A stretch of 64,000 nucleotides of DNA from an uncultured Gammaproteobacteria bacterium (lineage in GTDB: Bacteria; Patescibacteriota; Patescibacteriia; UBA2591; UBA6264), in assembly GCA_964596735.1 (NCBI GenBank), contig CAZQVF010000001.1, positions 74,135-138,134 of the forward strand, in the 5' to 3' direction. Below the pieces are notes generated by a model. It did no database searches. It saw only the letters and a list, made by a program, of their open reading frames with translations, and was not told where the DNA came from. The position numbers and the translations under genes were made by a program. Positions 33,170 through 49,736 of this stretch are shown one piece after another; positions within the stretch are counted from its first letter, which is position 1, and each line of letters begins with the position of its first letter.

Positions 33170-33170
33170 T

Positions 33171-34040: not shown

Positions 34041-34057
34041 TAAGATATTTTAATTAT

Positions 34058-34902
34058 ATGGTAATTACAAAAAAACGAAAAAACGTTCAAGCCTGGTCAA
34101 AACAAATGGCACAAAATAGAAAAAAAGGAGACCACCAACTGCTCCTAGTATAAGCGAGCAGAAGATTTATGAAAAATTTTTAAAACAAGCTTTAAAAAAT
34201 AAAGAAAACCCTAAGGTTTTAATTTTAGGAGTTACCCCAGAGCTTCGCAATATTGCCTTAAAAAATAATTGCCAGGTTGTGTCTGTTGACATTAGTCGGG
34301 AAATAATAAAAGCAATGAAACCCTCAATAAAATATAAAGGGTTAAAAAGAGAAAAGATTATTAATGCTAACTGGCTTGCTGTTTCTTTTCCAAAGAATAG
34401 TTTTGATTTGGTAATGGGAGATGCACCCTTAACCAATCTTCTTTCTATTCATGATCTTAGAAAATTATTATTTAAAGTCCGGAGAGTATTAAAGCCAAGG
34501 GGTTTTTTCTTAATAAGAGAACTCATTCATTTATCAAATAAAAAAGCTCCATTTAAAAAAATAGTTTCTGATTATCGGAAGAATAAGATAAAATGGGAAG
34601 ATTTTTTTATGGACCTTAGATTTTATACGTTTTTTAATAAAGCCTATAATCCAAAAAATAACCTTCTTTCCGCTGATAAGATTTTTCAGGAAATTGAAAA
34701 AAAATATAAGCAAGGCGAGCTGACAAAGAAAGAATATCAAAGAATTATGATTCTTGAAAATCGAATGAAGAATTTAGTTTTATTTAAAGAAAAATTTATG
34801 AAATTAATCAAAGAAAATTTTTCCATTATTTCTATTAAAACAGATAAAGAATTTAAATTCTGTCAATATTTACCAATTTATTTGTTGAAAAATAGAAAGT
34901 AA
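34058..34902 (+). pseudogene. array paralog 5, frameshifted (or -1 frameshift-dependent) copy
   Basis: The N-terminus (MVITKKRKNVQAWSKQMAQN) reads in one frame to a TAA at 34151. The family-conserved continuation (RRPPTAPSISEQKIYEKF...VLILGVTPELRNIAL...) lies in the -1 frame, beginning inside a GAAAAAAAGG A7 run at 34120-34126. The track only reports the GTG-started C-terminal 207-aa piece. Confidence 0.7.
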
Positions 34903-34903
34903 T

Positions 34904-35749: not shown

Positions 35750-35750
35750 T

Positions 35751-36638
35751 ATGGCCAAAAAGAAATTAGACAATCCTATTTGGGACGCAAAACAACAAAA
35801 ATGGTGGGAGTTTTTTTGGGGAGGAGTTAAAGCTCCTTGGCGACCGACAAAAAAGGAAATTAAATTTTGGGAAGGGAAAATTCAACAAGCTTTTAAAGAA
35901 AAAGATTTTTTACGTGTTTTAATTTTAGGGGCTACTCCAGAATTTAGAGACATGCTGACCAGGTATAAAGATAAAACAGAAGTGACCCTATTAGACGCAA
36001 ATCCGGCAGTTAAAGCAGCCATGGATAAGCTAAGGAAAAAGAGAAATTCTAAGGAAAGAATAGTTTGGGGTGATTGGCTAAAGATGCCCTTACCGTCTAA
36101 TTATTTTGACATTGTTTTTAGTGATGAAGTATTTGAGAATATTGCTTTGGAAAATCATGACAAGTTACATCAAAATATTAAACGGGTTTTGAAAAAAGAT
36201 GGTTATTTTTTAGATGGTCGGATTTGTTTAGAAGACTTTTTTAAACATCCCTTACATCTAGAACAAGTTTTAAGAAAATATAAAAGGGAGCCAAGGTTTT
36301 TCCACGATTCTTATAACCGGCTTTGGTATTTGTATCGTTTATGCCCTTCAGAAAAGCTCTTTTATAGTAAAAAAGAGCAAGCAGTTTTAATGAATAAAAA
36401 GGCAGCAGAAAAAGTATTTAATAGGGCTAAAAAAATAGGCATAAAAAACCCAAAATATTTAAATTGGGATCCAAGATTAGATTATAAGGAGCTTGATTAC
36501 AAGGAGATAGATTTAGCTAGTTTAAAAAGAGTAAAGTCAATGATTGGAAAATATTTTAAAATAGAAAAAACTTATCAGGATTTATTTCATCCAGTAATGA
36601 AAATAAAATATAATTTTGTCTGCCGTCCTAAAGAATAA
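35751..36638 (+). CDS. array paralog 7 (LGATPE MTase-like)
   Basis: VLILGATPEFRDMLTRY, TLLDANPAVKAAM, GDWLKMPLPSNYFDIVFSDEVFENI, VLKKDGYFLDG, ...FVCRPKE. Confidence 0.85.
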   Translation: MAKKKLDNPIWDAKQQKWWEFFWGGVKAPWRPTKKEIKFWEGKIQQAFKEKDFLRVLILGATPEFRDMLTRYKDKTEVTLLDANPAVKAAMDKLRKKRNSKERIVWGDWLKMPLPSNYFDIVFSDEVFENIALENHDKLHQNIKRVLKKDGYFLDGRICLEDFFKHPLHLEQVLRKYKREPRFFHDSYNRLWYLYRLCPSEKLFYSKKEQAVLMNKKAAEKVFNRAKKIGIKNPKYLNWDPRLDYKELDYKEIDLASLKRVKSMIGKYFKIEKTYQDLFHPVMKIKYNFVCRPKE

Positions 36639-36641
36639 AAT

Positions 36642-37499
36642 ATGGCAAAAAAAGGTTTAATTAATGGAAAAGAATGGGTGGATTATTTAAAATTTTGGTC
36701 GATTATGGCTCCGCCGGCCCGGCCCTCTAGTTTTGATATAAAGATTTGGGAGACATATATTAAAAAAATATTAAGACAAAAAAGAGATATTAAAGCTTTA
36801 GTTTTTGGCGCCACTCCTGAAATCCGCGATTTATTAGCTAAATATAAGATTTTCACTACTCTTTTAGATGTTAATCCAGCCATGATTAAAGGGTTGATGA
36901 AATTCATGAAGTATAAGAAGCAACGAAACGAGAAAGTAATTATTGATAATTGGCTAAAAATTAGAGAATTGTTTTCTGAAAATTCTTTTGATATAGTGAT
37001 GGGCCATGATTTTTTTAATAATATTCCTTGGAGTTCTCATAATAAATTAGCCAGCAGCATTAAATGGGTTTTAAAAAAAGATGGCTATGGATTAATTGTT
37101 TCTCCAATTTTAAGAAAAACAAAAAATTTGTCTAGCGAGCATTTTGTTACGCTATATAAAAAAAATCCAAAATACTTTAAAGAATTTTGTCATCGTTGGT
37201 ATGTAGTAGATGTTTTAAAAAAATTAGATTATAACAAAAGAACCAGACAGTTTTTTATAAAAAAAATAAAAGAACGTTTAATCAAAGAAGCAGAAAAACA
37301 AGGTTTGTCAGAAAAGGATATTAATCAGATGTGGGTTTTTAAAACATTTAATATAGCTGACAATTATATTGGAGTTCACCCGCCCTTAAAAGATTTATTA
37401 AATGTTTTTAAGAAATATTTTAAAATTGAGAAAATGTCTTATTGGTCAAAACAGGGGAACAAATCCCATTTTAATTTTGTTTTAAGACCTAAGAAATAA
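36642..37499 (+). CDS. array paralog 8 (LGATPE MTase-like)
   Basis: ALVFGATPEIRDLLAKY, TLLDVNPAMIKGLM, DNWLKIRELFSENSFDIVMGHDFFNNI, VLKKDGYGLIV, ...FVLRPKK. Confidence 0.85.
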   Translation: MAKKGLINGKEWVDYLKFWSIMAPPARPSSFDIKIWETYIKKILRQKRDIKALVFGATPEIRDLLAKYKIFTTLLDVNPAMIKGLMKFMKYKKQRNEKVIIDNWLKIRELFSENSFDIVMGHDFFNNIPWSSHNKLASSIKWVLKKDGYGLIVSPILRKTKNLSSEHFVTLYKKNPKYFKEFCHRWYVVDVLKKLDYNKRTRQFFIKKIKERLIKEAEKQGLSEKDINQMWVFKTFNIADNYIGVHPPLKDLLNVFKKYFKIEKMSYWSKQGNKSHFNFVLRPKK

Positions 37500-37502
37500 A
37501 AT

Positions 37503-38378
37503 ATGGCAAAACATAAGATAGACAATCCAGTTTGGCAAAAAAAAGAAGAATGGTGGTATAATGTTTGGAAAAAAGTTGAGCCACCATTTCATCCTTCAAA
37601 AGGGGAGGTGATGTTTTATGAAAAGGCAGTGAAAAAAACATTGAAACGAAAAAATCCAAAGGTTCTTGTTTTAGGAGCAACACCAGAAATCCGTGATATG
37701 TTAGCTAAATACAAAAAATTAGACGTTTATATTATAGACGCTGATGTTCCAGTTTATCGAGCCATGACCCGGTTAATGAAAAGAAAGAACAAACGAGAAA
37801 AATTAGTAGTTGGAGATTGGCTAAAAATGCCATTTAAAAAAGATACCTTTGATCTGAGTTTGAGCCACGGAGCTTTTTCTGTAATTAGTCTAAAAAATCA
37901 TGAAAGATTTTATAACAATATTAAAAGAGTAATTAAAAAAGATGGTTATATTGTAATGAGTCGGGTGAATGTCGAACCCTTTTTAAAAGAGCCAATTAGT
38001 TTTAAACAGATTATTGATAGATATAAAGAGGATCCAAAATATTTTAAAAGCCTTCAAAACAGAGTTTATATTTTATACCAATTGACCAGCCGACCAGGCT
38101 TATATAATTACAAAACCCAGAGCATTAAATATCATGTCATGGCTAGAAAATTAAGAGATTATGCTAGAAAACAAGGACTTTCAGAAAAGCAAATAAAAGG
38201 TCTGTATTTTACCCCAGATTTTGATGTGAATCTTAAAATTGATGACACAGAAATACAAACCCTTAAAAGACTAAAGACAATGATTAAAAAACATTTTATA
38301 ATTAAAGAAATATATCAGGATGATTATCACCCGGTGGCCAAAATATTTATTGATTTCTTATGTCAAAAAAGAAAATAG
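37503..38378 (+). CDS. array paralog 9 (LGATPE MTase-like); recent duplicate of paralog 10
   Basis: VLVLGATPEIRDMLAKY, YIIDADVPVYRAM, GDWLKMPFKKDTFDLSLSHGAFSVI, VIKKDGYIVMS, ...IFIDFLCQKRK; ends with the same ...FIDFLCQKRK tail as paralog 10. Confidence 0.85.
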   Translation: MAKHKIDNPVWQKKEEWWYNVWKKVEPPFHPSKGEVMFYEKAVKKTLKRKNPKVLVLGATPEIRDMLAKYKKLDVYIIDADVPVYRAMTRLMKRKNKREKLVVGDWLKMPFKKDTFDLSLSHGAFSVISLKNHERFYNNIKRVIKKDGYIVMSRVNVEPFLKEPISFKQIIDRYKEDPKYFKSLQNRVYILYQLTSRPGLYNYKTQSIKYHVMARKLRDYARKQGLSEKQIKGLYFTPDFDVNLKIDDTEIQTLKRLKTMIKKHFIIKEIYQDDYHPVAKIFIDFLCQKRK

Positions 38379-39238
38379 ACAACCCAATTTGGCAGAAAAA
38401 AGAAGAATGGTGGTATAATGTTTGGAAAAAAGTTGAACCGCCCTTTTGTCCTTCAAAGGGGCAGATTAAGTTTTATGAAAAGATAATAAAGAACAAAATA
38501 CTTAAACGTAAAAATCCCAGAATTCTTGTCTTAGGAGTCACACCGCAGATTCGTGATTTATTGGCTAAATACAAGAAACTAGATGTTTATTTAATTGATA
38601 TTGATGTGCCGGTTTATCGAGCGATGACTAGATTAGTGAAGAAAAAAAATCCTAGAGAAAAATTAATCGTCGGTGATTGGTTAAAAATGCCTTTTGAAAA
38701 AAATTATTTTGATTTAATCATGGCTCATAGTTCGTTTTCTGTCATTAGTTTAAAACACCATAAGTTGTTTTATCAGAATATTAAAAGGGTTCTTAAAAAA
38801 GATGGTTATGTTTTAATGAGTCGGGGAATATTGGAATTTGCTTTTAAAGACCCGATTAATTTTAAACAATTTTTTAATAAATACAAAAAAGACCCTAAAT
38901 ATTTTAAAAATTTTCAAAACAGAACATATATTTTATACCGATTAATCAATCGACCAGGAATCTATGACAGAAGGACACAGGGATTTAAATGGCATGTTAT
39001 GGCCAAAGGGTTGATGGATTATGGAAAAAGACAAGGATTTTCAGAAAAACAAATAAAAAGTCTTTATTTTCTTCCTGAGATAGGGCCAGAAGCAGTTTAT
39101 ACAGATACTGATATTGAAAGTGCAAAAAAAGTTAAATCAATGATTAGAAAACATTTTATAATCAAACAAATTCATCAGGATAATTATCACCCCATTGCTA
39201 AAATATTTATTGATTTTTTATGTCAAAAAAGAAAATAA
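38360..39238 (+). CDS. array paralog 10 (LGATPE MTase-like)
   Basis: About 70% identical by eye to paralog 9 along its whole length. The ATG start sits inside the last codons of paralog 9 (ATGTCAAAAAAGAAAATAG overlap). Confidence 0.85.
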   Translation: MSKKKIDNPIWQKKEEWWYNVWKKVEPPFCPSKGQIKFYEKIIKNKILKRKNPRILVLGVTPQIRDLLAKYKKLDVYLIDIDVPVYRAMTRLVKKKNPREKLIVGDWLKMPFEKNYFDLIMAHSSFSVISLKHHKLFYQNIKRVLKKDGYVLMSRGILEFAFKDPINFKQFFNKYKKDPKYFKNFQNRTYILYRLINRPGIYDRRTQGFKWHVMAKGLMDYGKRQGFSEKQIKSLYFLPEIGPEAVYTDTDIESAKKVKSMIRKHFIIKQIHQDNYHPIAKIFIDFLCQKRK

Positions 39239-40071
39239 GTGTAAAAGATTATGTTGAATTTTGGAAAAATCTTTATCCAGAGATAAAGCCGCTTCCTTCA
39301 ACAATTCAGTTTTGGGAAGATAAAATTAAAGAGATATTAAAGAAGAATAAGAATCCTCAGGCCTTGGTTTTAGGAGTGACCCCAGAAATCAGAGATTTAT
39401 TGACTAAGCATAAAATTAAGACAACCTGTTTAGACCTTAATCCAATAATGATTAAGGCAATGGAATCATTAGTTAAAAGGAAAAATCCTAAAGAAAGAAT
39501 TATTAAGGGTGATTGGCTAAAAATGCCATTTAAAAAAGATACTTTTGATTTTATTATCAGTGATTGCCCCCAAGATAATATTCCCTATAAGAGTTGGAAC
39601 AAATTTTTTCAAAGTGTTTTTCAGGTTTTAAAACCAAGCGGATATTGGTTATTAGGAGCAACTCTTTTTAAAGGTTTTAAAGAGGGAATTAATTTAAGTC
39701 AATTCATAGAAATTTATCGAAAAAATCCCAAGGTATTTACAAATTCGAAGCAAAAGTTTTATTATCTTCTTAAACTATCTAGTTGTCGTGATTTTAATAA
39801 TCGCAAGACCAAAACAGTTGATTGGATAAAGGTAGATAAAGAATTAGAAAAACTTTATAAAAAAGGATTAATCAACAGAAAAGAGTTAAATGATTTATCT
39901 ATATCTACAAAAAGTATTAAGTTAAGTTTGGCCTGTAAATGGCCCTGGGTTACCATGAATGAGTTTTGTAGAATTTTGAAAAAGAATCATTTTTATGTGA
40001 TAGGTTATAGAGAAGATGACATTTTTCCAGCTGGTTGTTTTCGCCAGGCTTTTATTTTAAAAAAACATTGA
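39220..40071 (+). CDS. array paralog 11 (LGATPE MTase-like)
   Basis: ALVLGVTPEIRDLLTKH, TCLDLNPIMIKAM, GDWLKMPFKKDTFDFIISDCPQDNI, VLKPSGYWLLGA; the start overlaps the paralog 10 stop with the same ATGTCAAAAAAGAAAATAAG junction. Confidence 0.85.
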   Translation: MSKKKISVKDYVEFWKNLYPEIKPLPSTIQFWEDKIKEILKKNKNPQALVLGVTPEIRDLLTKHKIKTTCLDLNPIMIKAMESLVKRKNPKERIIKGDWLKMPFKKDTFDFIISDCPQDNIPYKSWNKFFQSVFQVLKPSGYWLLGATLFKGFKEGINLSQFIEIYRKNPKVFTNSKQKFYYLLKLSSCRDFNNRKTKTVDWIKVDKELEKLYKKGLINRKELNDLSISTKSIKLSLACKWPWVTMNEFCRILKKNHFYVIGYREDDIFPAGCFRQAFILKKH

Positions 40072-40110
40072 AAATAAAGAAAAAGCCGTTTTGTAGCGGT
40101 TTGAAAATTT

Positions 40111-40965
40111 ATGACAAAAAAAATTAAAAAACAAAATAAAAAAACTTTTAATCCAGACTGGAAAAAATGGTCTGATTTTTGGAATAAAATTAAACCACCC
40201 TGGAAGCCTTCGGTTCAAGAAATAAGATTTATAAAATCAAGACTTAAAGTATTGGTTAAAAACAATCAACCACGAGCCCTGATTCAAGGCGCAACCCCAG
40301 ACTTTCGTGATTTATTAGCTGATTTAGGTTATCAGGTCTGGCTTTTAGACATAAACAAAGAAATGGTTGATGGTACGAGGCTGGTGATGAAGAATAAAAA
40401 TCCTAAAGAAAAAGTAAAGATTGGGAATTGGCTTGCCAAACCATTTAAAACAAACTATTTTGATGCTGTCTTAGCCGACGAAACTCTTGATAACTTAGCT
40501 TTAAAAACATATAACCAGTATTTTCAAAATATAAAAACGTTTCTTAAACCAGGTGGATATTTTATTTACGGGGCTTATTGCATGCCAGCCCGGACTCGCC
40601 AAATAAGTTTTGATGAGTTAGCTAAATTATATAATAAAGACCCGAAATTTTTTAAAAAATGGGAGAATAAATGTTATCTTTGGCACTGGGTGCAAGATAA
40701 ATCTAAAATCTTTGATCGTCGAAAATGGCAATATGATTTTACCTATTTTGATAACGAAATTCAAAAACTATATGATCAAGGGAAAATATCCAAGCAAGGC
40801 TTAAAAGATTTACAATATAAGATGGGGGCATATCAGAGTGTTCATCTATACCGCAAAGATTTAGAGATTCGACTTAAAAAGTATTTTAAAATTTTAAACA
40901 TTTGGGTTGTTCCAAAGATGAAGTATCATAATAAGATAGTTTACGTTTTAAAAGTTCAAAAATAA
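40111..40965 (+). CDS. array paralog 12 (LGATPE MTase-like)
   Basis: ALIQGATPDFRDLLADL, WLLDINKEMVDG, GNWLAKPFKTNYFDAVLADETLDNL, FLKPGGYFIYGA. Confidence 0.85.
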   Translation: MTKKIKKQNKKTFNPDWKKWSDFWNKIKPPWKPSVQEIRFIKSRLKVLVKNNQPRALIQGATPDFRDLLADLGYQVWLLDINKEMVDGTRLVMKNKNPKEKVKIGNWLAKPFKTNYFDAVLADETLDNLALKTYNQYFQNIKTFLKPGGYFIYGAYCMPARTRQISFDELAKLYNKDPKFFKKWENKCYLWHWVQDKSKIFDRRKWQYDFTYFDNEIQKLYDQGKISKQGLKDLQYKMGAYQSVHLYRKDLEIRLKKYFKILNIWVVPKMKYHNKIVYVLKVQK

Positions 40966-41019
40966 GAACCCTTCGCTACGCTCAGGAACCTTGAAATTAA
41001 AACTTTATTTTATAAATAT
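40964..41019 (+). promoter_or_regulatory. conserved CTTGAAATTAAA promoter-like element (internal to the array)
   Basis: AAGAACCCTTCGCTACGCTCAGGAACCTTGAAATTAAAACTTTATTTTATAAAT in the 74-nt gap between paralogs 12 and 13; same architecture as the copies at 1879, 4839 and 19449. Confidence 0.55.
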
Positions 41020-41039
41020 TAAGGTAGTTTAATTATAAT

Positions 41040-41891
41040 ATGACTAAAAAAGAATCAACTAGCAAAAAATTTATAGATCCCTGGAAAACAATGGCAAATA
41101 ATTGGAATCTATTTTGTTCTCCTGGTCGACCTTCATCAAGAAATATCTTAGATTATGAAAAACTTTTTCAATCTACAGTTAAAAAAAGAAAAAATCCCAA
41201 GATATTAATTTTAGGGGCAACGCCAGAACTGAGAGACCTTTTAAATAAATTTAAAAAAGCAGAAGTATGTATTTGTGATATTAATATAGAAATGATTTTA
41301 GCCATGACAGAATTGATGAAAAAGAAAAAAGCAGTGGAAAGGGAAATATGGATGAAAGCCAATTGGAAAGACATGCCTTTAAAGAAAGATTATTATGATG
41401 TTATCTTGGGCGATTACATTACCAGCGCTTTTCCCTTAAAAGATCACGCAGAATTATTTAATAAATTAAGATCAGTTTTAAATAAAAATGGTTGTTTTGT
41501 TAGCAGGATCTTTTTTTACAATCCAGATGCAGTAGAAGATTTTAATCAAGTAGCGGATAAATATTTAAACAAAAAAGTAACCCCTAGGACAATAACTGAT
41601 TTTTGGATGGAGGCATATTTCCGCGGTCCGTATAGAAAAGGGGGAGTTCTTTCAGGCAAGAGATTTAAAGAAAAAATGAATATTTACGTAAAAAAGAACC
41701 CCAAAATCAAGCCACTTTTCAATAAACTTGATCAAATATTATTGCCATATAATAAGGATTATAATTTTTGTAGCTTAAAACAAACTGAAAAATCATTAAA
41801 GAGATATTTTGTAATCAAAGAAAAATTACCAGAGATTAACACCACCTTAAGCAAAAATACATTTATATATAAATTATCTCCAAAGAAATAA
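41040..41891 (+). CDS. array paralog 13 (LGATPE MTase-like)
   Basis: ILILGATPELRDLLNKF, CICDINIEMILAM, ANWKDMPLKKDYYDVILGDYITSAF, hydrophobic core block after it. Confidence 0.85.
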   Translation: MTKKESTSKKFIDPWKTMANNWNLFCSPGRPSSRNILDYEKLFQSTVKKRKNPKILILGATPELRDLLNKFKKAEVCICDINIEMILAMTELMKKKKAVEREIWMKANWKDMPLKKDYYDVILGDYITSAFPLKDHAELFNKLRSVLNKNGCFVSRIFFYNPDAVEDFNQVADKYLNKKVTPRTITDFWMEAYFRGPYRKGGVLSGKRFKEKMNIYVKKNPKIKPLFNKLDQILLPYNKDYNFCSLKQTEKSLKRYFVIKEKLPEINTTLSKNTFIYKLSPKK

Positions 41892-41892
41892 T

Positions 41893-42744
41893 ATGACAAA
41901 ACAAATTCATGGCACAAAATATTGGACAGATTTAGCTCAATGGTGGCGAAAGGTTGCTCCACCGGTTAGACCATCAAAGTCGGATATTAAGATTTATGAG
42001 AGATTTTTAAAAAAGGTAATTAAGAACAAGAAACAACCCAAAATTTTAATTTTAGGAGCGACACCGGAAATGCGAGATTTAGCCGCTAAGTATAGAGCGG
42101 AAACAACTGTTTGTGATATTAGTTTGGAAATGATAATAGCTATGATTCAGTTGATGACTCATAAAAAGGCTGGCCAAAAAGAAGTTTGGGTTAAAGCAAG
42201 TTGGGTGACAGTACCATTGAAACATAATTATTACGATGTGATTTTAGCAGATGGGGTGATATGTAATATCCCCTGGTCAGAAGTAAATCAATGGTGGAAA
42301 CATTTAAATCAATTACTTAAACCAAAGGGTGTTTTTATCACCCGAGCCTTCTGTTTTACCTCTAGAAATGAGATTGATAAAAGTTTGAATAATCTTATTA
42401 AGAAGATTTTAAAAAAGAGAAATCCTTTAGCAACCGATTTTGGTCAATTGAAAATAACTTTAGAAATCGCAAGTTATAATTCTAAAACTAGAACGGGCAG
42501 TAATGCCAAGTATAGAGAATTATTTTTTAAACATATTGAGAATTTTTCAGTTTTTCAAACAAAGGCAAACAAGATTTATCGTCAACTTGTTAAGATTTAT
42601 CCACCTAAGCCAGTTAAAGTTTGGCGAATACCAACAAGAGCTCAGAGAGAAAAAGAAATTAAAAAGTATTTTAAGATTATTTTTGGTATTCCTTCTCCAT
42701 CTTTTCCAACTATACCGACAATTTATTTATTAAAGAAAAAATAA
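41893..42744 (+). CDS. array paralog 14 (LGATPE MTase-like)
   Basis: ILILGATPEMRDLAAKY, TVCDISLEMIIAM, ASWVTVPLKHNYYDVILADGVICNI, LLKPKGVFITRAF. Confidence 0.85.
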   Translation: MTKQIHGTKYWTDLAQWWRKVAPPVRPSKSDIKIYERFLKKVIKNKKQPKILILGATPEMRDLAAKYRAETTVCDISLEMIIAMIQLMTHKKAGQKEVWVKASWVTVPLKHNYYDVILADGVICNIPWSEVNQWWKHLNQLLKPKGVFITRAFCFTSRNEIDKSLNNLIKKILKKRNPLATDFGQLKITLEIASYNSKTRTGSNAKYRELFFKHIENFSVFQTKANKIYRQLVKIYPPKPVKVWRIPTRAQREKEIKKYFKIIFGIPSPSFPTIPTIYLLKKK

Positions 42745-42745
42745 C

Positions 42746-43621
42746 ATGCCTAAGAAAAAACAAGAAAAAAGATTTATTGCCCCCTGGAAAGCCTATGCTG
42801 CTCGTTGGCAAAAATACTGTACTCCACCAGGCCGGCCATCTAAACAAGCCATGGCCATGTATCGCAAATTTGCCAAACAATCTTTTTCTAATTTAAAACG
42901 CAAACCACGAACCTTGGTTTTAGGAGCGACTCCAGAGGCAAGAGATGTTTTAGTTGGGCTTAAAGCAGAGGTCAGTATTATTGATTTTAATATGGAAATG
43001 ATTTTAGCCATGACAGAATTGGTTAAAAAGAAAAATCCCAATGAGATTATAGTTAAAGCAAATTGGCTTAATATGCCCTTCCCCCCTAATTATTATGACG
43101 CTGTGTTAGGGGATCTTGTTTTATGCAATGTGCCCGGACCATTACAAGCCAGGTTTTTAAAAGAAGTCAAAAGAGTTTTAAAACCGAAAGGATATTTTAT
43201 CACTAAAATGCATGTTATTCCTAACGATTGGCAGTTTAAACCCATTGATTGGGTTTTGGATAAATATGCTAAAATCCCTGTTTGTAAAAATACAGCTATT
43301 GAACTATTTGGGTTTCTTCATAACACCATTTATCAGCCAAAAACCCATATAATGGATATTAGCCTAATTAGAAAAGGATTAACAAAGTATTGGAAAAAAG
43401 GAAAGTATAAACATCCTAGTGCCAAGATTAGTAAATTACTTAATCATATTTGGGAGATGTTTAAGCCCATGGACAAAACATGGTGTACAGGCTATGAAAA
43501 AGAAATTAGCAAACAGGTTTCCCAATATTTTAAAATCCGAAAGAAAATAGTTTTAAACGATTGTTATTTCCGTGAGATTGATGAATCATTTCCTTTTTGG
43601 GTTTGCCAAGTAAAAAAATAA
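42746..43621 (+). CDS. array paralog 15 (LGATPE MTase-like)
   Basis: TLVLGATPEARDVLVGL, SIIDFNMEMILAM, ANWLNMPFPPNYYDAVLGDLVLCNV, VLKPKGYFITK. Confidence 0.85.
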   Translation: MPKKKQEKRFIAPWKAYAARWQKYCTPPGRPSKQAMAMYRKFAKQSFSNLKRKPRTLVLGATPEARDVLVGLKAEVSIIDFNMEMILAMTELVKKKNPNEIIVKANWLNMPFPPNYYDAVLGDLVLCNVPGPLQARFLKEVKRVLKPKGYFITKMHVIPNDWQFKPIDWVLDKYAKIPVCKNTAIELFGFLHNTIYQPKTHIMDISLIRKGLTKYWKKGKYKHPSAKISKLLNHIWEMFKPMDKTWCTGYEKEISKQVSQYFKIRKKIVLNDCYFREIDESFPFWVCQVKK

Positions 43622-43622
43622 T

Positions 43623-44465
43623 ATGTTAAAACCCCATGAGCTAAATAGATCTTATTGGATGCGAAGTGCTGAGATTTGGCGCAAGTTAAAGCCGCCAGAA
43701 AGGCCCAGTAAAGAGGAAATGGGGATTTATGAAAAACACCTTAAAGAAATATTGCAGTTTAAAGGTAATAAATTAAGAGCTGTTATTCTTGGAGCTACTC
43801 CAGAAATTCGAGATTTATTAGCCAGATATAAAGTTTCAGACGTTACTATTGTTGATGTTAATCCTAATATGGTTCGGGCGATGAAAGAATTACTTAAAAT
43901 CTCAAAGGGCAGAGAGAAAATAGTCATTGCTAGTTGGTTAAATACGGGGTTGCCGTCTCATAAATATGATGTGGTTTTCTGTGATCACGGTACAGCCCAC
44001 ATCAAGTTTCTTCAGTGGCCTAAATTTTTTAAGGAACAAAAAAGATTTTTAAAAAAGAATGGCTTTGTTTTACATAATATCGTTACTCGGCCATTTAAGG
44101 AGGGCATCACGGTAAGTGATTTAGTTAAAATTTATAAGAAAAATAAATTAAAATTTTCTCGTCTTGATAAATTTTATTATAATTATTTAGTTTTTCTAAA
44201 ATTGAAAGATGTGAATGGAAAACACCACAAAGATTTAGGAGTTCTTGATAAAAATTTAAAAAGTTTTATCAATAAAAAGGTGATTGATAAAAATGATTAT
44301 CAAAAATTAAAGACTCCATGGGAAGATGCAAAAATTGCTCTTCCTCCGCAGGAGGTTGTTGATGAGATTTTTCAGAAATTTTTTAATTTAAAAACATTAG
44401 AACATGGATCAAAACACCCGATTTATAGTTGTCATCAAATATACTTTGGTCAAGTAAAAAAATAA
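43623..44465 (+). CDS. array paralog 16 (LGATPE MTase-like)
   Basis: AVILGATPEIRDLLARY, TIVDVNPNMVRAM, ASWLNTGLPSHKYDVVFCDHGTAHI, FLKKNGFVLHN. Confidence 0.85.
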   Translation: MLKPHELNRSYWMRSAEIWRKLKPPERPSKEEMGIYEKHLKEILQFKGNKLRAVILGATPEIRDLLARYKVSDVTIVDVNPNMVRAMKELLKISKGREKIVIASWLNTGLPSHKYDVVFCDHGTAHIKFLQWPKFFKEQKRFLKKNGFVLHNIVTRPFKEGITVSDLVKIYKKNKLKFSRLDKFYYNYLVFLKLKDVNGKHHKDLGVLDKNLKSFINKKVIDKNDYQKLKTPWEDAKIALPPQEVVDEIFQKFFNLKTLEHGSKHPIYSCHQIYFGQVKK

Positions 44466-44470: not shown

Positions 44471-44764
44471 ATGAAAATTAAAATACCACCTGTTTCCATT
44501 GACACTGACAAACTAATTAAGCGCTGTGGTTATGCTGAGTTAAGAAGAAAAACAGGGGAGATAAGTTATGTTCGTCGTTTACGTGGTTATCAATACCCAC
44601 GCTTTCATGTTTATATTGAAAATGGATATTTTAATCTTCACTTAGATCAAAAGGCCCCTTGTTATCAAGGGTCTTCAGCTCACGCCGGAGAATATGAGGG
44701 AGAAATTTTAGTAAAAGAAAAAGAAAGAATAAAAGAGATCATTAATAAGTATAGAAATGAATAA
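44471..44764 (+). CDS. hypothetical 97-aa protein, unrelated insert within the array
   Basis: MKIKIPPVSIDTDKLIKRCGYAEL...RFHVYIENGYFNLHLDQKAPCYQGSSAHAGEYEG; none of the paralog blocks are present. The track calls it from 44429, overlapping the upstream gene; the ATG at 44471 was preferred. Confidence 0.4.
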   Translation: MKIKIPPVSIDTDKLIKRCGYAELRRKTGEISYVRRLRGYQYPRFHVYIENGYFNLHLDQKAPCYQGSSAHAGEYEGEILVKEKERIKEIINKYRNE

Positions 44765-46427
44765 AAAAGGTTGGACAAAAAGATGGAAAAATGTTTCTGA
44801 ATGGTGGGGAAAGTTAAATTCACCCTGGACCCCTTCTTTGGGAGAGTATAAAATCTATGAAAAGTTTTTGAAAAAGACAACAAATTTTAAAGATAAAGAT
44901 AGAAAAATGCTAATTTTAGGAGCGACGGCATTGTTAAGAGAGCTGGGGTATAAGTATGGCTATCAAATCACCTTGATTGATATAAATCAAGAAATGGTTA
45001 AAGATCAAACTAGATTTTTAGGCCTTAAAATTCCTAAAGAAAAAGTGGTTATTGGTGACTGGTTAGAAATGGATAAAATTTTTAAAAACCAACAATTTGA
45101 CGTTATCGCAGCAGATCATTCAGTTATTAATGTTAAATTTAAAAATTGGCCCAAACTTTATAAAAATATACAAAATCTTTTAAAACCTGATGGTTCGGTT
45201 CTTTGGGCAACAACTGTTTATAATCATCGAAAGCATGGTCAAGTAAAAGACTTGGTAAAAAGTTATCGGCCCAATAAATCAGAAAAAGACAGATTTATTA
45301 GAATTTATAAATTATTTGGTAATCCAAAATTTCATGATAAAAACCATGGTTTTCATTTTGGCCAAGCTGACAAGGAAATAGGAAAATTAGCCAAGAAAAA
45401 AAGTTTTTCCAAAGAGCAAATCAATGAAATGAAGTTGAATTTAGGAAACTGGACTTCAGTAATATTACAAAAAAAGAAATTTGAAGATTTTACAAAAAAA
45501 TATTTTAAAATAATTGATAATCAGAAAGATAAAAGTCATCATTTCTATAAATATCAGCAACTTTATCTTTTAAAGCACAAAAAATCACCTAAGAGAAGTG
45601 TTTCATGGAAAACTATTGCCGAAGTCTGGCCTGATTTAAAGCCGCCTTTAAGACCCTCAAAAGGAGAAATGAGGATTTATGAGAGATATTTAAAACAGAT
45701 TATTAAACAAAAGAAAGGTAAACTAACCGCCTTATTATTTGGTTTAACCACAGAAATCAGGGATATGTTGGCAAAATATGGGGTATTTGTCACCATGATT
45801 GATGTTAATCCGGAAATGGTTAAAGTGACAGAATCTTTATGTCAACAGAAAAACAGAAAAGAAAAAGTGGTTATTGATGACTGGTTAAAGTTTAATCTTA
45901 ATAAAAAGTTTGACATTATTTTGGGAGACCATGTTTTTGGTAATGTAGAGTTTAAAAAACAGCAGAGGCTTTGGAGGCAAATCAAAAAACATTTGAAATC
46001 CGACGGGTATTTGATTACAGACGTTCATTTAAGAGCTTTAAACAAGAAAATAGGTTTAAAGCAGTTTATTGAAAAATATAGAAGAAGTAAAATATTAAAA
46101 AAGAACCGAGAAGAAAAATGGTATTGGCTTTATTCTTTGGTTTATAACAATCCTGTTTTCTTTAAAAGGAAAATTAAATCAGTTTTATGGCCCTCAGTTG
46201 AAGAATTATTAAGGCAAACCAAGAAAAGAAATATTGATTTAAGTATGGCAGAAGCAAGAGAGATTGCTGATGACGTTCACATAGACAGGCCTTGTTGGTT
46301 TATGCTTCCGATGAAAAAGGAATTTGAAAAAGAATTAAAAAAATATTTTACAATGATTGATTCAGATATTAATAGAAAACACTCGGTTTATCGCTGTTAT
46401 CGCATTTATTTTGCTAAGTCAAAATAA
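44757..46427 (+). CDS. array paralogs 17+18 fused into one 556-aa two-domain protein
   Basis: Both halves carry the full block set. N-half: WKNVSEWWGKLNSPWTPSLGEYKIYEKF...MLILGATALLRELGYKY..TLIDINQEMVKD..GDWLEMDKIFKNQQFDVIAADHSVINV..LLKPDGSVLWA. C-half: WKTIAEVWPDLKPPLRPSKGEMRIYERY..ALLFGLTTEIRDMLAKY..TMIDVNPEMVKV..DDWLKFNLNKKFDIILGDHVFGNV..HLKSDGYLITD. Confidence 0.85.
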   Translation: MNKKGWTKRWKNVSEWWGKLNSPWTPSLGEYKIYEKFLKKTTNFKDKDRKMLILGATALLRELGYKYGYQITLIDINQEMVKDQTRFLGLKIPKEKVVIGDWLEMDKIFKNQQFDVIAADHSVINVKFKNWPKLYKNIQNLLKPDGSVLWATTVYNHRKHGQVKDLVKSYRPNKSEKDRFIRIYKLFGNPKFHDKNHGFHFGQADKEIGKLAKKKSFSKEQINEMKLNLGNWTSVILQKKKFEDFTKKYFKIIDNQKDKSHHFYKYQQLYLLKHKKSPKRSVSWKTIAEVWPDLKPPLRPSKGEMRIYERYLKQIIKQKKGKLTALLFGLTTEIRDMLAKYGVFVTMIDVNPEMVKVTESLCQQKNRKEKVVIDDWLKFNLNKKFDIILGDHVFGNVEFKKQQRLWRQIKKHLKSDGYLITDVHLRALNKKIGLKQFIEKYRRSKILKKNREEKWYWLYSLVYNNPVFFKRKIKSVLWPSVEELLRQTKKRNIDLSMAEAREIADDVHIDRPCWFMLPMKKEFEKELKKYFTMIDSDINRKHSVYRCYRIYFAKSK

Positions 46428-46432: not shown

Positions 46433-46461
46433 TCGACAAATATCTTATTTTTACATATAAT
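46433..46461 (+). promoter_or_regulatory. sigma70-type promoter (TCGACA-N17-TATAAT)
   Basis: TCGACA, a 17-nt spacer, then TATAAT in the 66-nt gap before the Nif3-like gene. Confidence 0.5.
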
Positions 46462-46493
46462 TAAGAACAAGATTTATTTTTAACTATATATTT

Positions 46494-47444
46494 ATGACTA
46501 TTGAACAAATTTACAATTTAGCCATTAAAATGGGCATGAAAAGCGATTTAAGAGGGGAGAGACAGGTAAAAAAAATGTTAACCCATTTAAAGAAAAGGTA
46601 TGAAAAAATGCCAGGAAAACAAAAGAAAGAATTTGACAAAGAAAAATTAACAAATCCATATTCTGATACCCGCATATTAAACAAAACAAAAAAACCAATT
46701 AAAAAGATTTTAACTGGTATTGATATGGAAGTAAGTGAACTACTTTTAGCCGAACAATTAGGTGGTGTTGACTTGATTTTAGCTCACCACCCCAGAGGCA
46801 TAGGATTAACCGGATTAGATGATGTGATGAAACTTCAGGCAGATGTTTTAAATCTTTATGGTGTGCCAATTAATATTGCTGAAAGTCTGGTTCGTTTAAG
46901 AAGAGGAGAGGTTAGTCGTTCAATTTCTTCGGCTAATCATAACCGAGTCGTTGATGCAGCTAAACTATTAAAAACAGGATATATGTGCATGCATACCCCA
47001 GCTGATAATTGTGTGGCTAGTTTTTTAAACAAATTGATTAAAAAGAAAAAACCAGAATATGTAGAAGATCTATTAGATCTATTAAAAACCATTCCTGAAT
47101 ATCAACAAGCCATGAAAATAGGAGCTGGACCAAGACTTTTTGCTGGTAAAGAAATAAATCACTGCGGCAAAATTGCTTTAACAGAAATCACTGGCGGAAC
47201 AGAGGGGTCTTCAAAGGTTTATGAAAAAATGAGTCAGGCAGGAATAGGCACAGTAGTGGCCATGCACATGAGTGAAAAAAATCGCAAAGAAGCAGAAAAA
47301 GCCCACATCAATGTCGTTATTGCCGGTCATATTGCTTCAGACTCCATTGGCATGAACCTAATATTAGATGAATTAGCCAAGAAAAAAATAGAAATCATCC
47401 CATGTTCTGGATTAATTAGAGTGGAGAGGTTTAAGAAAAGATAA
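46494..47444 (+). CDS. NIF3/YqfO-family (GTP cyclohydrolase 1 type 2-like) dinuclear-metal protein
   Basis: KKILTGIDMEVSELLLAEQLGGVDLILAHHPRG resembles the NIF3 N-terminal block ending in HHP; distal GHIASDS histidine block; the stop is 2 nt before the next paralog's ATG. Confidence 0.5.
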   Translation: MTIEQIYNLAIKMGMKSDLRGERQVKKMLTHLKKRYEKMPGKQKKEFDKEKLTNPYSDTRILNKTKKPIKKILTGIDMEVSELLLAEQLGGVDLILAHHPRGIGLTGLDDVMKLQADVLNLYGVPINIAESLVRLRRGEVSRSISSANHNRVVDAAKLLKTGYMCMHTPADNCVASFLNKLIKKKKPEYVEDLLDLLKTIPEYQQAMKIGAGPRLFAGKEINHCGKIALTEITGGTEGSSKVYEKMSQAGIGTVVAMHMSEKNRKEAEKAHINVVIAGHIASDSIGMNLILDELAKKKIEIIPCSGLIRVERFKKR

Positions 47445-47446
47445 AT

Positions 47447-48289
47447 ATGTCAGTACAACAGAATAAAAAAGACATGTGGTTTGAAAGTATTGCCCAGCAA
47501 TGGTCTATTTATGCGCCACCAGTCACTCCTTCTAAGTCAGAATGCCAGATTATTAAAAAGTGTATTCTTAATAAAAAAAGGAAAAATCTTCGGATATTAG
47601 TTTTAGGGGCAACGCCAGAATTTCGTGATTTAGCCCATGAACTAAAAGCAGAAGTTACTTGTGTAGACGTTTCTGTGTCAATGCTTCAGGGGTTGGTTCA
47701 TTTAATGAAACAAAAAAATAAAGCTGATCAGGAGATATGGTTTAAAGCCGATTGGCTAACCGTTCCCTTGGCAGAGAATTATTTTGATTTTGTTTTGGGT
47801 GATTTTGTTATTGTTAATTTGCCGATTAATCTGCAGCCAAAGTTTTTTTCAAAGATTAAGCATATTTTGAGGAAGAATGGGTTTTTTATCACTCGTCACC
47901 TTTTACCATTGGACTCATTTGAGCCTTTTCCTGAGCTTATTGGCCAAGCATTAAAGAATAAGAGTTTTAACAAGAGAATGATAAACAGTTTTTCATTAGA
48001 TGTTTTGCAGTCTGTTTATGAAAAAAGAACAAAGGTGATGAAAGTAAAAAAGGTTTATTCTGAGTTTAAAAAACTTATAATTCAGGAAAAAAATAAACAG
48101 AGAAGAAAAAGGATTAAAGATTTGTTTGAAATTTATCAAGAATATTATCCTCTTGGTAAAGCTTGGTGGGGCTTATTAAAAAATCCAGGAGAAAGAGTAA
48201 TGAAGAAATATTTTAAAATTCAAGATATTAGATATGGACAGGACCATGACCGTGTGGATTATTGTCCAATTTATTTTTTAAGAAAATAA
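47447..48289 (+). CDS. array paralog 19 (LGATPE MTase-like)
   Basis: ILVLGATPEFRDLAHEL, TCVDVSVSMLQGL, ADWLTVPLAENYFDFVLGDFVIVNL, ILRKNGFFITR, ...IYFLRK. Confidence 0.85.
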   Translation: MSVQQNKKDMWFESIAQQWSIYAPPVTPSKSECQIIKKCILNKKRKNLRILVLGATPEFRDLAHELKAEVTCVDVSVSMLQGLVHLMKQKNKADQEIWFKADWLTVPLAENYFDFVLGDFVIVNLPINLQPKFFSKIKHILRKNGFFITRHLLPLDSFEPFPELIGQALKNKSFNKRMINSFSLDVLQSVYEKRTKVMKVKKVYSEFKKLIIQEKNKQRRKRIKDLFEIYQEYYPLGKAWWGLLKNPGERVMKKYFKIQDIRYGQDHDRVDYCPIYFLRK

Positions 48290-48290
48290 A

Positions 48291-49208
48291 ATGAAATATC
48301 CCAGTTATCTTAATTTAAGTGAAAAAGAACTTCATTCAAGGATTAAAAAAGCCAATCAATTACTTAGTCCATGTCAGGTTTGTCCGCGAAAATGCGGAGC
48401 TGATCGGATTGAAAATGAAAAAGGTTATTGTTGTTTGGGAAATAAAGCAGTAGTTTTTAGTTTTAATCCTGGTTTTGGCGAAGAAAAAGCCTTAGTCGGT
48501 CAATTTGGTTCAGGAGCAATCAACTTTAATTTTTGTAATCTGTCTTGTGCCTATTGCCAGACTTATGATATTAGTCAGCTACAAAGAGGAAGGACGGTTC
48601 CAGGAAAAGAAGTAGGTGATAAGGAACTGGCAAAGATAATGTTAAAATTACAAAAATCAGGTTGTCATAATATAAACTTGATTAATCCCACTTCTCAAGT
48701 ACCTCAAATTTTAGCCAGTTTACCCCAGGCTATTAAAGGGGGATTAAAAATACCACTTATTTACAACACTAATGCCTATGATTCTGTAAAAACTCTAAAA
48801 TTACTATCCGGAATCATTGATATTTATTTGCCAGATTTTAAATATTCAGATGAAAAAACGGCGGTTAAATATTCACAAGCATCTGGTTATTTTGAAATAG
48901 CTAAGAAATCAATAAAAGAAATGCATAGACAAGTGGGTAATTTAGAAATTGGTACGGACAATTTAATGAAAAAAGGACTTTTGGTCCGTCATCTTATTCT
49001 CCCTAATAATTTAGCCGGCTCAGAAAGGGTTTTAAAATTTTTAGCTAAGAGAATTTCTCCCAATACCTTTGTTAATCTTATGAATCGGTATAATCCTTGC
49101 TGGCAAGCAAAAAACTTCCCAGAAATTAATCGTTACATTACCACAGAAGAGTATAAGAAAGTGGTTGATTTGGCTAAAAATTATAATTTAAAGTGGTTTA
49201 CTGAATAG
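48291..49208 (+). CDS. radical SAM enzyme, PflX-like (pyruvate formate-lyase activase homolog family, COG1313-like)
   Basis: N-terminal C..CPR.C cluster (CQVCPRKCGADRIENEKGYCC), canonical radical-SAM CX3CX2C (CNLSCAYCQ), and a glycine-rich downstream block. The ATG is 1 nt after the stop of paralog 19. Confidence 0.75.
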   Translation: MKYPSYLNLSEKELHSRIKKANQLLSPCQVCPRKCGADRIENEKGYCCLGNKAVVFSFNPGFGEEKALVGQFGSGAINFNFCNLSCAYCQTYDISQLQRGRTVPGKEVGDKELAKIMLKLQKSGCHNINLINPTSQVPQILASLPQAIKGGLKIPLIYNTNAYDSVKTLKLLSGIIDIYLPDFKYSDEKTAVKYSQASGYFEIAKKSIKEMHRQVGNLEIGTDNLMKKGLLVRHLILPNNLAGSERVLKFLAKRISPNTFVNLMNRYNPCWQAKNFPEINRYITTEEYKKVVDLAKNYNLKWFTE

Positions 49209-49226: not shown

Positions 49227-49736
49227 TTAAATCCTTCGTTTTTTAAACAAAAAGATTACAACAATAATTATTAAAAGGGGGATAAACCAGAAAATAAGAT
49301 TTTTGCTGGTTTTTTTTTGAGAAGTTTCTGAGTCAAGAGTTTTTAATTTTTCAATCGGGGAAATGCACCCTCTACTTACACATTTAATAACAGTTTGTTC
49401 AATATTAGAAGCAATGGCTGAATTATACCCAACAAAAGATCTTTCTCCTATTAAGATAACCGGAACAGGGATTTCTTTAAGATCAAGATTATAAGCCTGC
49501 CCTAGATTAAGGTAAAGACCCTTGTTTGCCTGATTATAAAAAACTTCAAAGTCTCTGATTTTTAATTCTGAATATTTTGCTGATAATTGACCCAAAAATA
49601 TTTGAGTCTGAGCACAAACAGGACAGCCTTGGCCATGGAAAAAATATAAATCAACTGGCTGAGCCGCTAAACAAGACTGCCAGATTAACAGGCCAAAAAT
49701 AATTAAGAGAAAAAAATTCAAAGTTTTCATATTCAT
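49227..49736 (-). CDS. secreted/membrane-anchored thioredoxin-fold CxxC protein
   Basis: N-terminal signal-like segment (FFLLIIFGLLIWQSCLAA), FFHGQGCPVCAQ CxxC motif, C-terminal TM anchor (LIFWFIPLLIIIVVIFLF). Confidence 0.6.
   Translation of the reverse strand: MNMKTLNFFLLIIFGLLIWQSCLAAQPVDLYFFHGQGCPVCAQTQIFLGQLSAKYSELKIRDFEVFYNQANKGLYLNLGQAYNLDLKEIPVPVILIGERSFVGYNSAIASNIEQTVIKCVSRGCISPIEKLKTLDSETSQKKTSKNLIFWFIPLLIIIVVIFLFKKRRI

Follow-up and report, generated by a model that had tools for sequence, protein, structure and literature searches.

Probable lineage-specific synteny of conserved NIF3-like and 'PflX'-type radical SAM genes interleaved with a methyltransferase array in Patescibacteria

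Enzymes of the radical SAM (rSAM) superfamily are marked by a CX3CX2C motif, which binds the SAM-cleaving [4Fe-4S] cluster. Among them, the 'PflX' family (putative pyruvate formate-lyase activating enzymes), which we take to be equivalent to COG1313 and KEGG K04070, carries a further N-terminal CxxCPRxC motif upstream of a CNLxCxxC cluster motif. The trmK-yqfO pair of Firmicutes is presumably an example of an operon that couples a NIF3 gene to a methyltransferase (MTase) gene. Literature searches found nothing on the function of the PflX family or COG1313, of Patescibacteria methyltransferase paralogs, or of the AmmeMemoRadiSam proteins. SAM-dependent MTases are among the top COGs recurring in operons with NIF3 (COG0327; PMC8469502 Table 3). 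The same work proposes a metal chaperone or insertase role for DUF34, cites an iron-delivery role for the NIF3-like HcgD, and describes the dinuclear-site ligands of YbgI (PMC8469502).

We analyzed a 64-kb stretch of Patescibacteria DNA (hereafter the window) in which, likewise, a same-strand MTase adjoins a NIF3 gene. Three genes follow one another on the + strand between 46494 and 49208: a NIF3/DUF34-like protein of a divergent, 3RXY-type subfamily (46494..47444, 316 aa), paralog 19 of a ~280-aa class I SAM MTase family with an LGATPE variant of motif I (47447..48289, 280 aa), and a 'PflX'-type rSAM enzyme (48291..49208, 305 aa). The downstream end of the unit is set by a convergent gene for a 169-aa thioredoxin/glutaredoxin-like membrane protein (49227..49736, - strand), which serves as a synteny marker. 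With homologs at E-values of 1e-180 to 1e-197, these are real genes rather than chance ORFs. Re-derivation from the ORFs exactly reproduced the coordinates and gaps given in the preliminary description, with 2 nt between NIF3 and paralog 19 (TAA-at-ATG) and 1 nt between paralog 19 and the rSAM gene (TAA-a-ATG).

The rSAM protein matches Pfam Radical_SAM (PF04055) at 33.9 bits (cut-off 29.5). It contains both of the motifs earlier ascribed to it, CQVCPRKC from residue 28 and CNLSCAYC at residues 82-89, which are invariant in an alignment of 28 homologs, as are C28, C31, P32, R33, C35, C47 and C125. As a search of the PDB with its sequence gave no match at E <= 1, its fold was judged on the predicted structure, in which the model has a partial or full TIM-barrel rSAM core and a compact PFL-AE-like fold. 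In contrast to E. coli PflA (PDB 3C8F/3CB8), with which it shares merely 15-16% identity, it has an additional N-terminal region of ~80 residues bearing the invariant CxxCPRxC...C motif (C28/C31/C35/C47). It equals the 'PflX' family in length and in both motifs, being a single-domain protein of ~300 aa with CxxCPRxC upstream of the rSAM motif, and it is set apart from other members solely by five extra residues behind the cluster motif, common to its sub-clade. The N-terminal Cys motif, the PFL-activase-like fold and the K04070-style name of close homologs in JGI ('putative pyruvate formate lyase activating enzyme') support its identification as PflX-type. This is a large family (>7,800 matches), widespread in anaerobes, with 57-60% identity across Patescibacteria and 45-56% to members in 80 species spread over many bacterial phyla and the archaea. 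We infer that the enzyme would cleave SAM at a [4Fe-4S] site held by C82/C86/C89, with C28/C31/C35/C47 probably forming a second site for a metal or Fe-S cluster; the substrate would be widely conserved among anaerobes, and the open PFL-AE-like barrel of the model suggests that it is a macromolecule.

Assignment of the 316-aa protein to the NIF3 family was confirmed by a match to Pfam DUF34_NIF3 (PF01784; 32.4 bits, cut-off 23.4, residues 164-297) and by one to the PDB entry 3RXY, 'NIF3 protein' (Sthe_0840), over 241 residues (67-307; E 1.4e-25). However, it falls far under the cut-off of the YbgI/SA1388 equivalog that includes YqfO (TIGR00486; 28.5 vs 130.55 bits), which sets it apart as a divergent subfamily. 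Proteins of this kind share 64-78% identity across Patescibacteria, and 23 homologs show no variation in the AHHP, HTxxD and GHxxSD motifs or at H98, H99, P100, H167, D171, H279 and D283. By analogy with YbgI, H98, H99, D171, H279 and D283 would be counterparts of the dinuclear-site ligands and are candidate metal ligands. The window protein differs from its NIF3/DUF34 relatives in ~65 additional N-terminal residues and in a separate partner gene, a conserved small ORF encoding 97 aa (44471..44764, + strand), whose start likely lies at 44471 and not at the TTG at 44429. Profile searches of Pfam and the PDB with the 97-aa protein gave no match, and its single-sequence AlphaFold model (pLDDT 40) was unusable. 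The small ORF and NIF3 form the best-kept linkage at the locus, and this recurrent partner of NIF3 in Patescibacteria has not been remarked on before. Together the two proteins would act as a metal-binding factor.

The MTase-like nature earlier ascribed to the neighboring array is upheld by Pfam: paralog 19 matches Methyltransf_11 (34.3 bits, cut-off 21.2) and Methyltransf_25 (30.6 bits, cut-off 27). The window paralogs all share G54 and D114, nearly all share D74, and motif I reads LGATPE in place of GxGxG. By these sequence features paralog 19 belongs to the class I SAM-dependent MTases, with putative catalysis. The main body of the array (30591..44465, + strand) comprises 16 copies, one probably a pseudogene, and is followed beyond the small ORF by a two-MTase-domain fusion (44757..46427, + strand). 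At its head lies a divergent PLP-fold protein (29023..30471, + strand), which matches Cys_Met_Meta_PP in its N-terminal part only and is also found beside paralogs in L001, L095, L101, L104, L112, L126, L137 and L138 (these and similar designations refer to loci of relatives). The array is thus more strongly associated with the PLP-fold protein than with the rSAM or NIF3 genes. An exhaustive profile search recovered 572 cluster representatives of the ~280-aa family at E <= 1e-30; it was used for family size since the alignment-seeded version of the search returned only 22 proteins, owing to word seeding. The family is distinct from TrmK, and its adjacency to NIF3 varies within the clade. Pairwise identities of 22-42% among window paralogs, along with one-to-one orthologs in relatives, mark the paralogs as old and diverged by their sequences. 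A recent duplication inserting paralog 19 was considered and rejected, as its nearest in-window relative has 43% identity (over a partial alignment) and an ortholog in L091 has 52%.

The 66-nt gap 5' of NIF3 holds the sigma-70-like match TCGACA-N17-TATAAT reported earlier (46433..46461, + strand; score 11/12). It is one of the top two promoter matches in 20 kb, the other lying before the first paralog; such matches number 106 in total vs 84.6 +/- 10.5 in shuffles, a slight excess only. The CTCGACAAA and TA(T/C)AAT boxes are kept in L001, L003, L091, L095, L112 and L138. The -10 box lies within an inverted repeat with a T-run behind it (46442..46473, + strand), and this hairpin might serve as an operator or as a terminator/attenuator. 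In relatives its stems span 9-12 bp with compensatory changes, and the hairpin energies range from -7.4 to -12.8 kcal/mol vs about -2 to -4 in shuffles, and the window has the weakest copy, at -4.3 kcal/mol. NIF3, paralog 19 and the rSAM gene are probably co-transcribed from this conserved promoter-like element.

We compared the neighborhoods of these genes in distant species and in a within-clade set of loci that are few and related to each other. Within 10 kb of the rSAM gene, the 80 distant species all lack NIF3-like genes, homologs of the small ORF and full-length array paralogs. Two weak partial MTase matches (E 1e-6 to 1e-7) were seen among these distant loci. Within Patescibacteria, L005 and L163 have the rSAM gene with neither NIF3 nor an MTase, while L087, L089 and L090 have NIF3 with neither rSAM nor MTase. 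L088 retains the backbone of the window (small ORF-NIF3-groES/EL-MamF-PEP synthase) but has neither an rSAM nor an MTase gene. L104 and L138 combine the array, the small ORF, NIF3 and a Memo-AMMECR1 fusion, with no rSAM gene at the locus. The slot between NIF3 and rSAM is empty in L001, L112 and L003, holds the paralog 19 ortholog plus a second paralog in L091, and a different paralog in L095. NIF3 and rSAM are both missing from 18 of the 23 paralog-family loci flanked by 3 kb or more on each side, and likewise from four of the seven blocks of at least three paralogs (up to 7 copies). The preliminary description had asked whether the rSAM gene always co-occurs with the LGATPE paralogs; it does not, in either direction, L104 and L138 having the array without rSAM, and L005 and L163 the rSAM without an MTase. 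It had also raised the prospect that the array is never linked to rSAM or NIF3 elsewhere, which is true of most loci, yet the linkage does exist in some relatives. Its further suggestion, that this might be an ordinary conserved PflX gene found at the same position in genomes without the array, is borne out: the gene occurs in the absence of the array in each of the 80 species from other phyla, as it does in L005 and L163, and in L003 it occupies the corresponding syntenic position beside a single MTase. A general survey of rSAM neighbors recovered a downstream metallophosphoesterase in 13 of 83 loci, followed by a nitroreductase in 5, a linkage too weak to offer a clue to rSAM function.

From the observed gene identities, spacing, conservation and variable linkage, we consider it likely that the arrangement reflects lineage-specific synteny of conserved core genes, which are probably co-transcribed and functionally independent. 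Under this proposal, NIF3 and the stand-alone rSAM enzyme of PFL-activase fold would be two conserved core genes of Patescibacteria. Their conserved backbone runs from ribosomal proteins, def, ftsE, archease and RtcB through the small ORF-NIF3 pair to groES/EL and PEP synthase. A lineage-specific MTase array of variable copy number would have spread into it, with paralogs filling the gaps between core genes in some genomes only. The tight TAA-N-ATG junctions would then reflect genome compaction and the architecture of the array, not a dedicated pathway. Gaps of 1-3 nt occur at 13 of the 21 junctions of the array region, 11 of them between paralogs, and TAA-N-ATG is usual there; as this is the array norm, the 1-2 nt spacing around NIF3 and rSAM is not special. 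We infer, too, that each protein would work on its own.

Two observations weigh against such independence. First, in the sub-clade comprising the window, L001, L112, L003 and L091, with rSAM identities of 71-100%, one orthologous MTase keeps its place between the small ORF and NIF3, its frame overlapping or almost touching theirs; in the window it is the first half of the two-domain fusion, and in L003 it is the sole representative of its family at the locus, adjoining NIF3, which in turn overlaps the rSAM gene by 4 nt. Second, there is the recurrence of MTases in NIF3 operons noted above (PMC8469502). Moreover, a lineage-specific recruitment would be compatible with the lack of such linkage in other phyla. 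One could hence picture the small ORF-MTase-NIF3-(MTase)-rSAM set, under its conserved promoter and hairpin, as a functional module of the sub-clade, in which MTase paralogs would act on the substrate or product of the rSAM enzyme, and NIF3 with its 97-aa partner would supply metal. We regard this as improbable.

A related proposal leaves out the MTases, and has NIF3 and rSAM as a functional pair, with NIF3 and the 97-aa protein delivering or repairing metal or Fe-S for the rSAM enzyme in the manner of HcgD. NIF3 lies directly 5' of rSAM in L112; the two genes are separated by 14 nt in L001 and overlap by 4 nt in L003. The chaperone/insertase and iron-delivery proposals for DUF34 and HcgD (PMC8469502) are in keeping with such a role. 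However, the 10-kb surroundings of rSAM are free of NIF3 in all 80 of the other species, NIF3 occurs without rSAM in L087-L090, L104 and L138, and rSAM occurs without NIF3 in L005 and L163, making a dedicated pair unlikely.

The more inclusive proposal of the preliminary description was a single operon-encoded pathway, in which the MTase paralogs, NIF3 and rSAM would combine radical and methyl-transfer chemistry on one shared substrate, be it a nucleic acid, a peptide or a metabolite. It has in its favor the tight same-strand spacing, the small ORF-MTase-NIF3-rSAM cluster kept in L001, L112, L003 and L091, and the conserved promoter-like element 5' of NIF3. Nevertheless, equally tight spacing is usual throughout the array; the rSAM gene stands apart from its proposed partners in all 80 distant species, as it does in L005 and L163; most paralog blocks do without NIF3 and rSAM; the slot adjoining rSAM is empty or filled by non-orthologous paralogs; and L104 and L138 carry the array without rSAM. 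With linkage this variable, and with rSAM and NIF3 both conserved where the array is absent, the neighborhood data largely refute a concerted pathway, and we accord it little credence.

Less plausible still is that the 'PflX'-type enzyme is the radical partner of the AmmeMemoRadiSam A and B proteins in this clade, its position here being a remnant. These proteins do adjoin it in some relatives: a Memo-AMMECR1 fusion (TIGR04336 + TIGR04335) lies directly 3' of rSAM in L091 and L095, two loci devoid of a TIGR04337 rSAM, and AMMECR1 comes after rSAM in L005. However, Memo and AMMECR1 are absent from the window and from the rSAM loci of L001 and L112, no AMMECR1 lies near rSAM among the 80 distant species, and in L104 and L138 the fusion adjoins NIF3 without rSAM. 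In L003 the fusion is adjoined by a genuine TIGR04337 rSAM, a different gene; the window rSAM has a weak N-terminal match to TIGR04337 (E 0.007; 15.2 bits vs a cut-off of 220). A role as glycyl-radical activase was weighed and rejected. The window rSAM passes none of the curated activase models (TIGR02493, TIGR02494, TIGR02495 and others), the best being NrdG2 with 18.8 of the required 131.15 bits; for comparison, the AmmeMemoRadiSam rSAM of L003 scores 76.8 bits on PFLA. In agreement with the earlier statement that no glycyl-radical enzyme is nearby, neither such an enzyme nor the RVxG[YFWH] fingerprint was found in the window, whose ORFs of at least 400 aa are other proteins or lack a Pfam match. 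In all loci fetched, a crude regular expression likewise detected no C-terminal RVxG[YFWH] among the 240 ORFs reaching 500 aa.

The main value of lineage-specific synteny as an account of this locus is one of caution. In the compact genomes of Patescibacteria, a shared strand and 1-2 nt spacing are the default, and unrelated core genes can come to be interleaved with a growing paralog array, so that neighboring position by itself says little about a shared pathway. The array itself associates best with the PLP-fold protein at its head, which is therefore the starting point for its study. The 'PflX'-type rSAM enzymes combine extreme conservation, at about 50% identity between bacteria and archaea, with the lack of a demonstrated function; were the sub-clade module to prove real after all, the array would make the role of the 'PflX' family as a whole accessible to genetics.

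The NIF3/DUF34-like ORF (46494-47444, +, 316 aa; Pfam DUF34_NIF3), a methyltransferase (MTase)-like paralog (47447-48289, +, 280 aa; Methyltransf_11/25) and the PflX-type radical SAM (rSAM) ORF (48291-49208, +, 305 aa; Radical_SAM) all score above their Pfam gathering thresholds and lie exactly where the preliminary description placed them, with 2-nt and 1-nt gaps whose stop/start junctions read TAA-at-ATG and TAA-a-ATG, respectively. Its view that NIF3 and the rSAM are tightly coupled to the array is true of the spacing, but 13 of the 21 array-region junctions have gaps of 1-3 nt, 11 of them between paralogs; thus, this spacing is the local norm and indicates no special coupling. The gene order runs L17, L13, def, an ftsE-like ABC ATPase, archease, RtcB, a PLP-fold protein and the MTase array (30591-44465), then a 97-aa ORF, a fused double MTase, NIF3, the MTase and the rSAM, and 3' of the latter a convergent thioredoxin-like membrane protein, groES, groEL, a small membrane protein and PEP synthase. 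RtcB was named by its match in position and length to the Pfam-annotated RtcB of a syntenic relative (locus L003). This backbone recurs in relatives' loci, and the source names of close homologs assign the window to the Patescibacteria (CPR). Within its mobile PEP-utilizers domain, the PEP synthase (52948-56625, +, 1225 aa) contains an intein bearing a LAGLIDADG homing endonuclease; orthologs in L001, L091 and L088 are intein-free and 811-832 aa long.

The rSAM has both cysteine motifs initially ascribed to it (CQVCPRKC at residue 28 and CNLSCAYC at residue 82), and C28, C31, P32, R33, C35, C47, C82, C86, C89 and C125 are invariant across a 28-member alignment. ‘PflX-like’ is hence a fair label on structural grounds; whether the rSAM belongs to the glycyl-radical activases is another matter, as no curated activase model matched (the best, NrdG2, scored 18.8 bits where 131 is required) and no glycyl-radical fingerprint occurs among the long ORFs of the fetched loci. 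An activase role is therefore unsupported. As originally noted, no glycyl-radical enzyme lies nearby: the ORFs of at least 400 aa in the 64-kb window are POR, FtsA, a 1537-aa ORF (6817-11430, +) with no Pfam match at E <= 1e-5, GyrB, CysRS, RtcB, the PLP-fold protein, the fused MTase, GroEL, the intein-bearing PEP synthase, UPF0182, DnaG and sigma-70. A literature search found no functional study of a PflX-type rSAM.

This rSAM is an ordinary, widely conserved gene. A homolog search returned 7,858 matches at E <= 1e-5, with 57-60% identity among named Moranbacteria, Parcubacteria and Portnoybacteria. A scan with one genome per species found at least 599 relatives, of which the best 80 (45-56% identical) include bacteria such as Thermodesulfovibrio, Atribacterota, Anaerolineae, Aquificaceae, Desulfobacterota, Clostridia, Omnitrophota and Brocadia, as well as Hadarchaeota, Methanotrichaceae and others. 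Within 10 kb of the rSAM in these 80 species from other phyla there is no NIF3-like gene, no homolog of the 97-aa ORF and no full-length array paralog, two loci showing only weak and partial MTase matches. Its commonest neighbor is a metallophosphoesterase gene, which directly follows it in the same orientation at 13 of the 83 loci (neighborhoods L007-L086, across phyla); a nitroreductase ranks next (5 loci), and both are also present in the patescibacterial locus L005. That locus (rSAM 59% identical) and another from Patescibacteria (L163, 58%) are devoid of NIF3 and paralogs. Among the loci compared, linkage of the rSAM to NIF3 or the paralogs is confined to close relatives. In L001 and L112 (rSAM about 89% identical) NIF3 directly precedes the rSAM, after 6-7 paralogs; in L003 (71%) the small 97-aa ORF, one MTase, NIF3 and the rSAM follow each other, the last two overlapping by 4 nt; and in L091 (71%) and L095 one or two paralogs separate NIF3 from the rSAM. 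L104 and L138 have the array and the small ORF, together with NIF3 and a fusion of Memo and AMMECR1, without a PflX-type rSAM. The linkage-bearing loci all have the same backbone markers (the thioredoxin-like gene, for example) and hence stand for one lineage rather than independent events.

The 19 paralog domains in the window share 22-42% identity, except for one pair at 68% (paralogs 9 and 10; 37503-39238, +), the array's only recent duplication; paralog 10 overlaps both 9 and 11 by an identical 19 nt (ATGTCAAAAAAGAAA...). Motif I reads LGATPE, and the paralogs are probably active SAM binders, given that they conserve G54, T56, R60, E96, W103, D114 and G145 (and D74 in almost every case). 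The fifth (34042-34902, +) looks like a pseudogene, with the conserved N-terminal W...W segment in another frame and an LGVTPE frame that lacks an ATG and is preceded by a stop. An exhaustive profile search recovered 572 cluster representatives at E <= 1e-30, one of them a 1704-aa protein with six domains; together with the fused gene (44757-46427, +; compare P0263), whose 556-aa product has two paralog domains, this indicates that fusion of array members is recurrent. One-to-one orthologs in relatives (identities for the copy at 33171 are 91% to L001, 67% to L095 and 59% to L091) show that the array is old and varies through gain and loss of members. Its content turns over fast: there are 19 domains at 30591-48289 of the window and 6-7 in genomes with an rSAM about 89% identical (compared across L001, L112, L095 and L091). 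The L001 array encloses a guanylate kinase gene on the opposite strand.

Arrays elsewhere are usually unlinked to NIF3 or the rSAM. A metagenome scan for the family gave 68 loci. One or more full-length paralogs occur in 73 loci, and in 23 of these the paralog block is flanked by 3 kb or more on each side; among the 23, NIF3 occurs in 5, the rSAM in 3 and neither in 18. For blocks of at least three paralogs with both flanks, 4 of 7 have neither (L107, L132, L141, L154), and family members in L092, L093 (an archaeal-looking contig) and L094 likewise lack both. In L092 (3612-11694) four genes with PEP-utilizers/PPDK_N domains precede three family members, a quite different context. A better candidate for an array partner than NIF3 or the rSAM is the divergent 482-aa PLP-fold protein (29023-30471, +) at the head of, or adjoining, MTase arrays, homologs of which accompany paralogs in eight relatives, distant ones included (L001, L095, L101, L104, L112, L126, L137, L138). 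Only its residues ~40-168 match PLP enzymes of Cys/Met metabolism, far below any cut-off.

The NIF3 assignment is borne out by a match to PDB chain 3RXY (E 1.4e-25 over 241 residues), the NIF3 protein Sthe_0840 (PMC8469502). Identity is 64-78% among many Patescibacteria, and the invariant H98, H99, P100, H167, D171, H279 and D283 would, by analogy, correspond to the family's dinuclear-site motifs. No consistent association with the rSAM or MTases is seen at four more distant NIF3 loci: L088 has def, ftsE, a 96-aa ORF, NIF3, groES, groEL, a MamF-like gene and PEP synthase, without rSAM or MTase; L087 has NIF3, then a 98-aa ORF and a SpoU methylase; and L089 and L090 have NIF3 alone. The sole recurrent partner is the 97-aa ORF (44471-44764, +), found with NIF3 in the window, L001, L003, L087, L088, L091, L095, L104, L112 and L138. 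Its product has no match in Pfam or PDB, gave an unusable single-sequence AlphaFold model, bears the motifs RLRGYxYPRFHxYI and NLHLDQKxPxYxGxxAHxGEY, and is probably a NIF3 partner.

The promoter proposed for NIF3 (TCGACA-N17-TATAAT, 46433-46461, in the 66-nt gap 5' of the gene) is present, scoring 11/12; it and a match preceding the array's first paralog are the two best in 20 kb, and its boxes are conserved in relatives. An inverted repeat surrounds the -10 TATAAT (46442-46473) and recurs in L001 (~8990-9025), L003, L091, L095 and L138 with compensatory changes (ATCTTA/TAAGAT, ATCTCA/TGAGAT, AGCCTTAT/ATAAGGCT, ACTCTTAT/ATAAGAGT). The predicted stems of 9-12 bp have energies of -7.4 to -12.8 kcal/mol versus about -2 to -4 for shuffles, the window's copy being the weakest; a T-run follows, and the CTCGACAAA box is better conserved than the stem. 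The hairpin may serve as an operator bound by a dimeric regulator, or else act on read-through transcripts as a terminator/attenuator.

Taken together, we consider it likely that an old, variable paralog array spread through a conserved syntenic neighborhood and interleaved with core genes, such that NIF3, the MTase paralog and the rSAM are probably co-transcribed yet functionally independent. The concerted radical and methyl-transfer pathway first proposed for the three is not supported, and we rate it improbable. It would draw on the one orthologous MTase that stably separates the small ORF from NIF3 in the sub-clade whose rSAMs are 71-100% identical, and on the SAM-dependent MTases reported as recurrent NIF3 operon partners (PMC8469502). 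Against it stand, in large part, both of the findings initially named as refuting it: the rSAM is an ordinary conserved gene that occurs without the array and in L003 sits at this position with a single MTase, and array homologs are mostly unlinked to an rSAM or NIF3. Nor are the slots around NIF3 fixed. First, that between NIF3 and the rSAM holds the 47447 copy in the window, its 52% ortholog plus another paralog in L091 and a non-orthologous paralog in L095, and is empty in L001, L112 and L003; the closest L104 counterpart of the 47447 copy (43%) is found 5' of the small ORF. Second, that between the small ORF and NIF3 holds an ortholog of the fused gene's first half in L001, L112, L003 and L091; in L104 the ortholog is that of the second half, whereas L095, L138 and L088 have nothing there. 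A pairing of NIF3 and the rSAM for metal delivery appears equally doubtful. Least probable is a link of the PflX-type rSAM to the AmmeMemoRadiSam A and B proteins; such a link is seen in L091, L095 and L005 but does not apply to the window itself. The Memo-AMMECR1 fusion (AmmeMemoRadiSam B plus A) lies 3' of the rSAM in L091 (11010-12443) and L095 (14282-15811), where the locus has no TIGR04337 rSAM, and 3' of NIF3 in L104 (14051-15637) and L138 (7762-9318); in L003 (12307-15029) the fusion has a true TIGR04337 rSAM as its neighbor.

The sequence description with which this analysis began is accurate. The three genes are new members of known, functionally uncharacterized families, and their arrangement is lineage-specific.
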